Virus record (IMG/VR): IMGVR_UViG_2558860274_000010
Location: 1-15,352 of that record
Source: a virus
Lineage: Duplodnaviria > Heunggongvirae > Uroviricota > Caudoviricetes
Reading direction: 5' to 3' (one strand)
Length of the DNA stretch: 15,352 nucleotides
Position 1 is the first letter of the stretch. The number at the start of each line of letters is the position of its first letter. The position numbers were made by a program, and so were the translations under genes. The notes beneath the pieces are model-generated. The model saw nothing but the letters and a program-made list of their open reading frames with translations. It searched no databases and was not told the origin of the DNA. Shown here piece after piece: positions 12,047 through 12,826 of the stretch.

Positions 12047-12511
12047 TGTTTTGTTATGAAGGTGTTACTGGTAACGTTAAGGTAATTTAACAAAGAGTCA
12101 GTTCCGGACTTTATAGTGTGCTCAGTTCATGGCCAAAAACGATTTCTGTGATAAATATTTTGAATATTATTTACAGGTAAATGGAGTGGGGCACATGGAT
12201 AGAAATATTACAATAGAGAATGAAGTATATGCCCGTATTGTATGGGCAGAGAAGGCAAAAACACGGTAATTCCGTGTGTTGCCATGATACCTGATTGGCA
12301 GAATAGTTGTTTGGTTTTGAGTATATAGTCAGCGTTTTTTGTTCAGTAATTGCTCCCTCAAAAAATAATAAAATAAGGTGATTGTTTTTGTTTATTATTT
12401 GGTTTTTTTTGTGTGTTGTTTTATTGTTTTTGCGTGGTTTGTTTTTTATTGTTATTTCATTAAGGGAAGGTAAATTCAGGATGGCAGTCTGTAGATAATC
12501 GGAGGTCACTT

Positions 12512-12826
12512 ATGCTACATGATCACGTGGCAGAATGTCTGGAGAAAAAAGGACTGTACCGGAGAGCAGCTGAACGATGGGCAAAAGTGATGGTACAGCT
12601 AAGTGATGACCAGAAAAGAAAAGTGGCGGCACAGAAACGAGCAGAGTGTTTGCGTAAGGCGCGCCGGACTCCGGTTTCACCGGTGAACCTGACCGAAATA
12701 AAACAAGCGGTCAACAGACTACATTCTGAGTTGGGAATGGGATTTGAAGAGCGGCGGGTATTCCGACGATATAAAGGGACAGGAGAACAGAATACGTCCG
12801 GAAACGCGCGGTCAAAAAAATGCTAA
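12512..12826 (+). CDS. pch: PerC-family regulator (Pch-like, 104 aa)
   Basis: Good ribosome-binding site (GGAGG). N-terminal EKKGLYRRAAERWAKVM matches the conserved PerC/Pch core; the length equals the 104-aa Pch proteins of EHEC prophages. Sits where lambda carries bor. Confidence 0.7.
   Translation: MLHDHVAECLEKKGLYRRAAERWAKVMVQLSDDQKRKVAAQKRAECLRKARRTPVSPVNLTEIKQAVNRLHSELGMGFEERRVFRRYKGTGEQNTSGNARSKKC

Follow-up and report, generated by a model that had tools for sequence, protein, structure and literature searches.

A G/T-rich tract upstream of pchA in a lambdoid prophage probably holds the pch promoter

Introduction

What does a tract of almost pure G and T do in front of a virulence activator gene? 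The question is raised by a 15,352-nt stretch of viral DNA (IMG/VR record IMGVR_UViG_2558860274_000010, positions 1 to 15,352; hereafter the window), a piece of a lambdoid prophage of enterohaemorrhagic or enteropathogenic E. coli (EHEC/EPEC). The original prediction, made from the letters alone, placed a pch gene of the PerC family right behind the spanin genes of the phage, with about 460 bp of A+T-rich DNA before it that includes the tract, and it suggested that the tract might be curved or H-NS-bound DNA and might control pch.

PchA, PchB and PchC are reported to switch on the LEE (locus of enterocyte effacement), which is the type III secretion island of EHEC. A protein identical to that of the window is reported in the literature to activate LEE1/ler transcription, members of the PerC family are reported to act on the LEE1/ler promoter, and Pch is reported to counteract H-NS at LEE1. 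Publications thus already cover the gene and its family, where it lies in the prophage, what it does at LEE1 and how the small RNA (sRNA) DicF controls it. We found the tract described neither as the promoter nor as the place where pchA, pchB and pchC diverge most, in a literature survey that covered the primary pch promoter papers little, so that both may already be described.

Here we report that the window carries the pchA cassette of an EHEC/EPEC lambdoid prophage and that the tract is, with high probability, the sigma-70 promoter from which pch is read, plus the adjoining upstream DNA. Overall, a known gene is found with an element of a known kind, and the new detail is modest.

Results

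The pch gene and the composition of the tract

The pch open reading frame of the window (12512-12826, plus strand) starts with ATG and encodes 104 residues. Its product is of the PerC family, as had been proposed: it matches the Pfam PerC profile (PF06069) with E=3.8e-44 and 149.3 bits (cut-off 22.6) over profile positions 1-89 of 90, and it is identical to PchA (ECs_1091) from prophage Sp4 of E. coli O157:H7 Sakai. In comparisons of the kind that the original prediction had called for, it lies one or two residues from PchB (V6L) and PchC (V6L and V58M), and PchD is 32% identical. This near-identity to the three Sakai proteins, together with the prophage location, assigns the gene on sequence grounds to the PchABC subfamily. 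Indeed, one source labels the exact sequence 'PchABC family transcriptional regulator', and the identical copies in other strains carry the accession WP_001303878.1, which is encoded by EDL933_RS06260.

The 465 bp that precede the gene (12047-12511, plus strand) are unannotated; in them a far-upstream part is followed by an A-rich block, then by the promoter-bearing G/T tract and last by the 5' untranslated region. They are 66% A+T, in line with the predicted ~460 bp of A+T-rich DNA, and the 200 nt at 12300-12499 reach 72% A+T against a window mean of 52.6%, one of the three highest values that any 200 nt of the window attain. The tract itself spans 85 nt (12377-12461, plus strand; -82 to +3 relative to the main start site described below). 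With 58 T, 18 G, 7 A and 2 C it is 89% G+T, so that its description as almost pure G/T was accurate, as was the sequence quoted for it. It is the most extreme 85-nt stretch of the window on G+T (the next-best has 74%) and on depletion of C, and its T-over-A skew of 0.78 is the window maximum. A C-free run of 73 nt extends over 12360-12432, Tandem Repeats Finder detects a degenerate 21-nt repeat in three tandem copies at 12381-12445, and there are five TpA steps in the 85 nt. Immediately upstream lies the A-rich block CCTCAAAAAATAATAAAATAAG (12355-12376, plus strand; -104 to -83 from the start site), which is complementary to parts of the T-rich tract (inverted repeats I1-I5).

The main start site and both promoter hexamers lie in the tract

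Transcription start sites were taken from the Cappable-seq data for strain EDL933 (PMC10469882, supplementary tables), which cover four media in exponential and stationary phase in triplicate, giving eight conditions, and were placed on the window by direct sequence matching. The top expression class of that study begins at 100 reads per million. The EDL933 copy of the gene, EDL933_RS06260 (PerC family, start codon at 1271010), has three gene-associated start sites among those listed, and of the 470 bp before it all but three (window 12060, 12384 and 12401) are as in the window; none of the three falls within -57 to +53. The two differences in the tract are A-to-G changes at 12384 (-75) and 12401 (-58) that make the window tract a singleton variant, slightly purer in G/T than the usual pchA allele (87%).

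The main start site corresponds to the A at 12459 (plus strand; EDL933 1271063) and was recorded, reproducibly in the triplicates, in all eight conditions at 164-2240 reads per million. The two minor sites, on the same strand, correspond to 12474 (EDL933 1271048, one of eight conditions) and 12484 (EDL933 1271038, two of eight). Upstream of the main site we find the -35 hexamer TTGTTT (12424-12429, plus strand), a 17-bp spacer and the -10 hexamer TATTGT (12447-12452, plus strand), which ends 6 nt before the mapped start and is followed by the A+T-rich discriminator TATTTC. The distances from the hexamers to the main start site are standard. The mapped main start site and both hexamers are thus within the tract, which bears out the suggestion that the tract controls pch. 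The hexamers match the consensus at only three of six and four of six positions, and there is no extended -10.

A consensus promoter scan run before the start-site data were consulted had listed the TTGTTT-17-TATTGT promoter, ranked fourth, and also a TTGTTA-16 bp-TAAATT promoter that matches the start site at 12484. Its two top-ranked promoters lie upstream of the tract, with predicted starts at ~12314 and ~12124; no start site is found at the first and a trace near the second, which advises caution with consensus scans in A+T-rich DNA. The sole upstream site listed is at 12084, with 2.9 reads per million in one of eight conditions. Since the main start site is at 12459 and none is listed at 12223-12422, the tract is best read as a promoter and the DNA upstream of it, not as a transcribed leader. 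RNA polymerase uses TTGTTT, the 17-bp spacer and TATTGT, and starts at A12459 to give an mRNA with a 53-nt leader; public start-site data, carried over to the window from a copy that is nearly identical, show this.

The DNA further upstream may contribute as well. The stretch TGGTTTTTTTTGTGTGTTGTTT (12400-12421, plus strand; -59 to -38), 73% A+T with a T8 run, occupies the position of an UP element, and we infer that the T-runs at -38 to -82 may play the part of an UP element to which the polymerase alpha subunit binds by its C-terminal domain, because weak hexamers are combined with a start-site signal of the top class in every condition. Transcription of pch appears strong and near-constitutive. 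The positive effect that ppGpp (guanosine tetraphosphate) and DksA are said to have on pchA would fit the A+T-rich discriminator.

Several points weigh against this assignment. The start site was measured in EDL933 and not in the source of the window, so that its transfer rests on the near-identity of the two copies. The pchA, pchB and pchC leaders differ at 2-4 positions only, and cross-mapping of reads may inflate the scores. No start site is listed between 12223 and 12422, but this absence is not proof that none exists there. The stretch at -59 to -38 fits the T-run of the distal UP consensus and not its A-tracts, leaving the UP-like role a conjecture. Finally, a region responsive to LrhA reportedly lies at about -418 to -392 from the start codon; if so, important control of pch is also exerted outside the tract.

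The tract is the most variable segment of the cassette, its promoter is kept

We compared 90 pch loci from Sakai, other genomes and IMG/VR prophage contigs. The arrangement TTGTTT-17 bp-TATTGT is kept in 84 of the 90, with a 16-bp spacer in three loci and an 18-bp spacer in one; TTGTTT with a spacer of 16-18 bp is present in 88 and TATTGT in 87. Around these hexamers the cassette changes fastest: across 43 distinct sequences 59% of the columns in the tract are variable, against 6% in the coding sequence, making the tract the most variable segment of the cassette. Between Sakai pchA and pchB, divergence is 28% in the tract and 45% in the A-rich block, compared with 2.3% in the remaining 308 intergenic bases and 0.3% in the coding sequence (Fisher p=6e-12). 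The changes are not spread evenly, in that 53 of 57 T positions of the tract are kept and 18 of 27 non-T positions differ, mostly by G/A swaps (Fisher p=2e-8).

The tracts of pchA, pchB and pchC accordingly have a T content of 67-68%, an A+T content of 77-85% and a G+T content of 80-87%. The G+T content is 87% in pchA and pchC, 80% in pchB, 76% in A25, 71% in locus L070 and 64% in E. albertii, and T still makes up 52-60% of the tract in the last three, the distant copies. As G+T falls and T stays, 'G/T-rich' describes the pchA and pchC alleles, and the property common to the loci is a T-rich promoter. Variability of the tract upstream of functional pch genes, which the original prediction had named as speaking against it, is therefore found in part: G/T purity does vary (87%, 80%, 64-76%), but the promoter hexamers inside the tract do not.

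Each of the allele types A, B and C is constant over many strains and tracks the protein variant, and T-runs range from T6 to T8 among the loci. In the pchB-type locus L066 (~1381-1457) a 39-nt deletion between T-rich repeats has removed the -35 hexamer and left the gene intact. In the comparison with L070, purine transitions exceed pyrimidine transitions in the flanking 300 nt as well, so that a strand-biased mutation process may contribute to the retention of T. The tract and the A-rich block are where pchA, pchB and pchC differ most. As the hexamers stay in place at a fixed distance and the sequence of the spacer, the discriminator and the DNA upstream is altered, the tract is where promoter strength or regulation particular to each paralogue is likely to reside.

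Leader, translation control and terminator

The 5' untranslated region (12459-12511, plus strand; 53 nt), with the Shine-Dalgarno sequence GGAGG at 12501-12505, is the best-conserved non-coding part, diverging by 4-10% among the Sakai paralogues and 8-18% in distant alleles, compared with 10-31% in the tract. In the predicted fold of 12459-12640 the Shine-Dalgarno sequence and the AUG are paired (P 0.8-1.0). Within the coding sequence, GACCAGAAAA (12606-12616, plus strand) is predicted to form eight contiguous base pairs with the 5' end of DicF, as judged from duplex prediction and by eye with the K-12 DicF sequence, and it coincides with the DicF site that has been published for the coding part of pchA. 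In the published mechanism, as relayed in reviews, DicF opens a self-inhibited pchA mRNA (Melson and Kendall 2019). A sequestered Shine-Dalgarno sequence and DicF pairing inside the coding sequence, the two marks of a DicF-responsive leader, are both predicted from the window copy; the Shine-Dalgarno sequence would be held by pairing with the coding region and freed by DicF. Given strong, near-constitutive transcription, much of the control of PchA output would then be post-transcriptional.

The leader has GGA motifs at 12464-12470 and 12479-12485 (AAGGGAAGG and CAGGAUGG) in addition to CGGAGG, which is the Shine-Dalgarno sequence, and the spacing of the three would suit a CsrA dimer. It also has a five-codon mini-open reading frame (AUG at 12482, UAA at 12497-12499); 12 nt separate its end from the pch AUG, and its own AUG is lost in pchC and L070. 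The leader was considered as a target of the anti-sRNA AgvB and rejected, as the pairing is no better than with shuffled seeds.

Downstream of pch, a bidirectional intrinsic terminator (12863-12890; A5, GC stem, T5) serves pch and the convergent ylcI gene. Its stem has a G-to-A mismatch relative to Sakai pchA, pchB and pchC, with a predicted energy of -8.7 kcal/mol against -14.7 kcal/mol in Sakai. Antisense start sites in the EDL933 data have minus-strand equivalents at 12678, inside pch (four of eight conditions), and at 12506 (one of eight), from which transcription would read back over the promoter tract.

A cassette in the slot between Rz/Rz1 and cos

The left neighbour of the cassette is the Rz spanin gene (11579-12046, plus strand; PF03245 Phage_lysis, E=1.2e-48) with Rz1 embedded in it (11799-11984, plus strand; PF06085, E=1.7e-21); Rz homologues in related prophages carry the annotation 'lysis protein'. 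The right neighbour is a YlcI/YnfO (DUF3950) gene on the minus strand (12908-13132; Pfam E=1.3e-17; NCBIfam NF041551). As anticipated, pch follows the spanin genes: Rz/Rz1 end 465 bp upstream, and pch occupies the lambdoid Rz-to-cos slot. In phage lambda this slot is the place of bor. Intact prophages show the order holin, lysozyme, Rz/Rz1, the 465 bp, pch, ylcI (minus strand), cos and terminase, and the neighbours of pch in the window are the same as in RM12581, A25, O121 and the Sakai prophages Sp4, Sp11 and Sp14.

The 465-bp region is found at 1878 places in 673 of 5426 complete E. coli genomes, in every case at full length and with no annotated feature. The Rz and ylcI flanks are found in ~4900 genomes, so that the unit behaves like a cassette set between them. 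In Sakai Sp10 the same flanks enclose an unrelated 362-bp filling, and a search of a phage collection returned the pch cassette as two short fragments only. The cassette has its own promoter and its own terminator, and in related phages the genes on either side of it are direct neighbours. Extra genes of this sort are called phage morons, and the pchA cassette is such a moron, lying between the spanin genes and cos.

The Sp10 filling (locus L095 2747-3108; NC_002695.2 1946746-1947107) carries the sRNA HnrS (EcOnc11) on the opposite strand. According to a 2026 paper, the multicopy HnrS represses Hha and so relieves LEE silencing. Two unrelated LEE-activating modules, pch and HnrS, thus alternate in one prophage slot. 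A homologue of HnrS was sought in the pch module and rejected, its sequence being unrelated to the module and absent from the window.

Elsewhere in the window are two tRNA genes (3390-3636), a full-length match to the STnc100 sRNA element (4336-4525, 130 bits), an IS66-family transposase (9056-10594) and a lysozyme (10710-11243). The tRNA genes with STnc100 form the usual layout downstream of the late promoter in Shiga toxin (Stx)-type prophages, and the published anti-sRNAs AgvB and AsxR map to such sites. Beyond ylcI follow a truncated small-terminase-like open reading frame and, on the minus strand, the genes for the EspF-repeat effector TccP/EspFu (13784-14374) and for EspJ (14699-15352). 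At this junction (13462-13800 / 13734-15352) the truncated frame runs directly into the tccP-espJ region, and the head and tail block is missing. The junction occurs in none of the 5426 complete E. coli genomes, in which the best matches cover the tccP-espJ part only, from ~13734. It places pch less than 1 kb from two effector genes for which Pch/Ler regulation and H-NS binding have been reported.

Features far upstream of pch

The far-upstream part of the 465-bp region holds a 48-nt block, ATGGCCAAAAACGATTTCTGTGATAAATATTTTGAATATTATTTACAG (12129-12176), whose nucleotides are identical in all alleles including L070, in which the sequence beside the block is 13-23% diverged. The block contains the near-palindrome ATAAATATTTTGAATATTAT and may be a far-upstream site at which a regulator protein binds; LrhA is reported to act far upstream of pchA. 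A 46-codon open reading frame (12129-12269, plus strand), entered as hypothetical in some genomes, EDL933 as annotated in 2017 among them, is most likely not a gene. Its changes are 18 non-synonymous to 1 synonymous in L070, where ATG and stop are also lost, and 8 to 1 in locus L032; there is no codon-position bias. It has no Pfam match, it is absent from the small-gene tables of Sakai ribosome profiling, and only the weak start site at 12084 lies upstream of it. The hairpin ACACGG/CCGTGT (12255-12285), extendable to GGCAA/TTGCC, resembles a minus-strand terminator, and in the O121-type alleles (L006 and L008) it gains a plus-strand T-run and becomes bidirectional. An sRNA on either strand ending at this hairpin was considered and rejected: we found no covariation, and the variants break pairs without compensation.

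Discussion

The promoter assignment has to be set against other readings of the tract. One, which extends a suggestion of the original prediction, is that the tract is curved or H-NS-bound DNA that silences pch until it is relieved by anti-silencing. Such a role is unlikely, though it could coexist with a promoter. The 72% A+T over 12300-12499 is high against the window mean, as is characteristic of H-NS-silenced DNA, the cassette is horizontally acquired prophage DNA, H-NS has been reported over EHEC virulence loci including espJ-tccP (Fukui 2016), and responses of pch transcription to LrhA, Lrp/butyrate and NtrC have been reported. The idea of curvature found no support, since TT periodicity at 10-11 bp is no better than in shuffled sequences (37% do as well, p=0.37), the starts of successive T-runs are 18, 16, 8 and 15 bp apart and so not helically phased, and the predicted curvature, computed with wedge angles, is at about the 95th percentile of the window and outside its top ten peaks. 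Silencing is further disfavoured by the small number of TpA steps and by the fact that T content and not A+T content is conserved between alleles, and a start site in the top expression class in all eight laboratory conditions argues against tight silencing in vitro. Another reading treats the tract, hexamers aside, as a neutral, slippage-prone spacer of low complexity whose composition stems from mutation bias and repeat expansion. The degenerate 21-nt repeat, the T6-T8 runs, the 39-nt deletion beside an intact gene, the exceptional variability of the tract and the purine-biased transitions flanking one divergent allele, which indicate a mutational strand bias, can all be read in this way. 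Yet with hexamers so weak, a start-site signal of this strength needs an element upstream to make up for them, T positions are 93% kept when 67% of non-T positions have changed, and allele types A, B and C are stable across many strains instead of drifting freely; on balance we regard neutrality as rather improbable.

Two further proposals would have the tract act as RNA. On the plus strand it could form a U-rich, C-free, unstructured part of a long leader that binds Hfq or ribosomal protein S1 or keeps Rho off, and the two best-scoring predicted promoters do lie upstream of it; T is kept while purines are swapped, a strand-specific pattern, the RNA from 12314 to 12540 is predicted to be unstructured (z=+1.24), and four ARN triplets can be picked out by eye at 12360-12372. 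The start-site data have already largely refuted this proposal: none of the listed Cappable-seq sites falls in 12223-12422, and the 12084 site is 100- to 1000-fold weaker than that at 12459. Moreover, no Hfq peak is listed here in the Hfq UV cross-linking and analysis of cDNA (CRAC) data, and the tables from RNase E CLASH (cross-linking and ligation, after which the hybrids are sequenced) show no leader interaction and nothing usable for the pch locus. The promoter hexamers and T-runs account for the conservation of T, and the tract would be transcribed only within the phage late transcript, during lytic growth, so that we consider a functional long leader very improbable. On the minus strand, a C/A-rich antisense RNA might act, like AgvB, as a sponge for the G/U-rich seed of GcvB. 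The antisense of the tract contains AACAACACA, and its predicted pairing with GcvB R1 (-25.3 kcal/mol) exceeds that of AgvB (-22.2); there are also the antisense start at 12506 and a minus-strand hairpin followed by a T-run at 12277-12261. That pairing, however, is only about 1.6 standard deviations better than for the window's other 85-nt pieces, the energies of which go as far as -34.5, and it is not conserved, falling to -14.1 in the pchB allele. No Hfq-bound sRNA is listed at the three Sakai pch loci, there is no Rfam match, and variants of the minus-strand hairpin break pairs without compensation, which together make a GcvB sponge the most far-fetched of these proposals. An anti-sRNA of the AgvB/AsxR type, a class of Hfq-bound RNAs of 51-60 nt whose 3' domain is conserved and whose genes lie at the PR' moron site, was likewise rejected: the known ones are at PR', the Rfam search gave no match, and no Hfq-CRAC peak occurs at any Sakai pch locus.

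The promoter assignment can also be compared with known systems. The closest, Sakai pchA in Sp4 with its EDL933 counterpart, encodes an identical protein behind a 465-bp region that matches that of the window bar three bases, with Rz/Rz1 upstream, ylcI downstream and the same DicF site and Shine-Dalgarno sequestration. The window copy differs by the two A-to-G changes in the tract (-75 and -58), by the weakened terminator stem and by what follows, a truncated small-terminase open reading frame joined to the tccP-espJ region. EPEC PerC, from the perABC genes of pEAF, and the EHEC proteins PchD and PchE belong to the same Pfam family. The 32%-identical PchD, by contrast, is encoded 78 nt behind ybdM in an ibrA-ybdM-pchD cluster on SpLE1 and lacks a T-rich tract, and perC is described as the third gene of the perABC operon; the tract thus belongs to the pchABC cassette and not to the PerC family. 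Lambda bor and the HnrS genes (EcOnc10-12, in Sp9, Sp10 and Sp12) share the slot after Rz and are, like pch, expressed in the lysogen with effects on virulence, but they are on the strand opposite to the late genes and pch is on the same strand. As for the promoter itself, UP-element promoters of the rrnB P1 type similarly combine poor core hexamers with A+T-rich DNA at about -40 to -60 and high output. The pch upstream DNA differs in consisting of T-runs broken by G and not of the AAAWWTWTTTTNNNAAA consensus, and the pch discriminator is A+T-rich, the opposite of that of rrnB P1.

Building on the variation among loci, the tract could be pictured as a tunable promoter module, in which slippage of T-runs (T6-T8 in the UP-like region), spacers of 16-18 bp and purine swaps among T positions that stay fixed would give each paralogue or strain a different promoter strength or regulator response. 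We put this forward tentatively and think it doubtful. If true, simple-sequence variation in the promoter of the LEE master activator would tune the dosage of that activator, somewhat in the manner of a contingency locus.

The findings leave the known picture of the pch system unchanged. Because PchA, PchB and PchC switch on the LEE, the amount of each matters for virulence. A tract that is the promoter of pch explains why it constantly travels with the gene, and strong transcription under ordinary laboratory conditions fits the published view that much of the control is translational, through DicF. The short segment from about -104 to +12 is where the three paralogues differ, and it offers a handle on their reported differential regulation.

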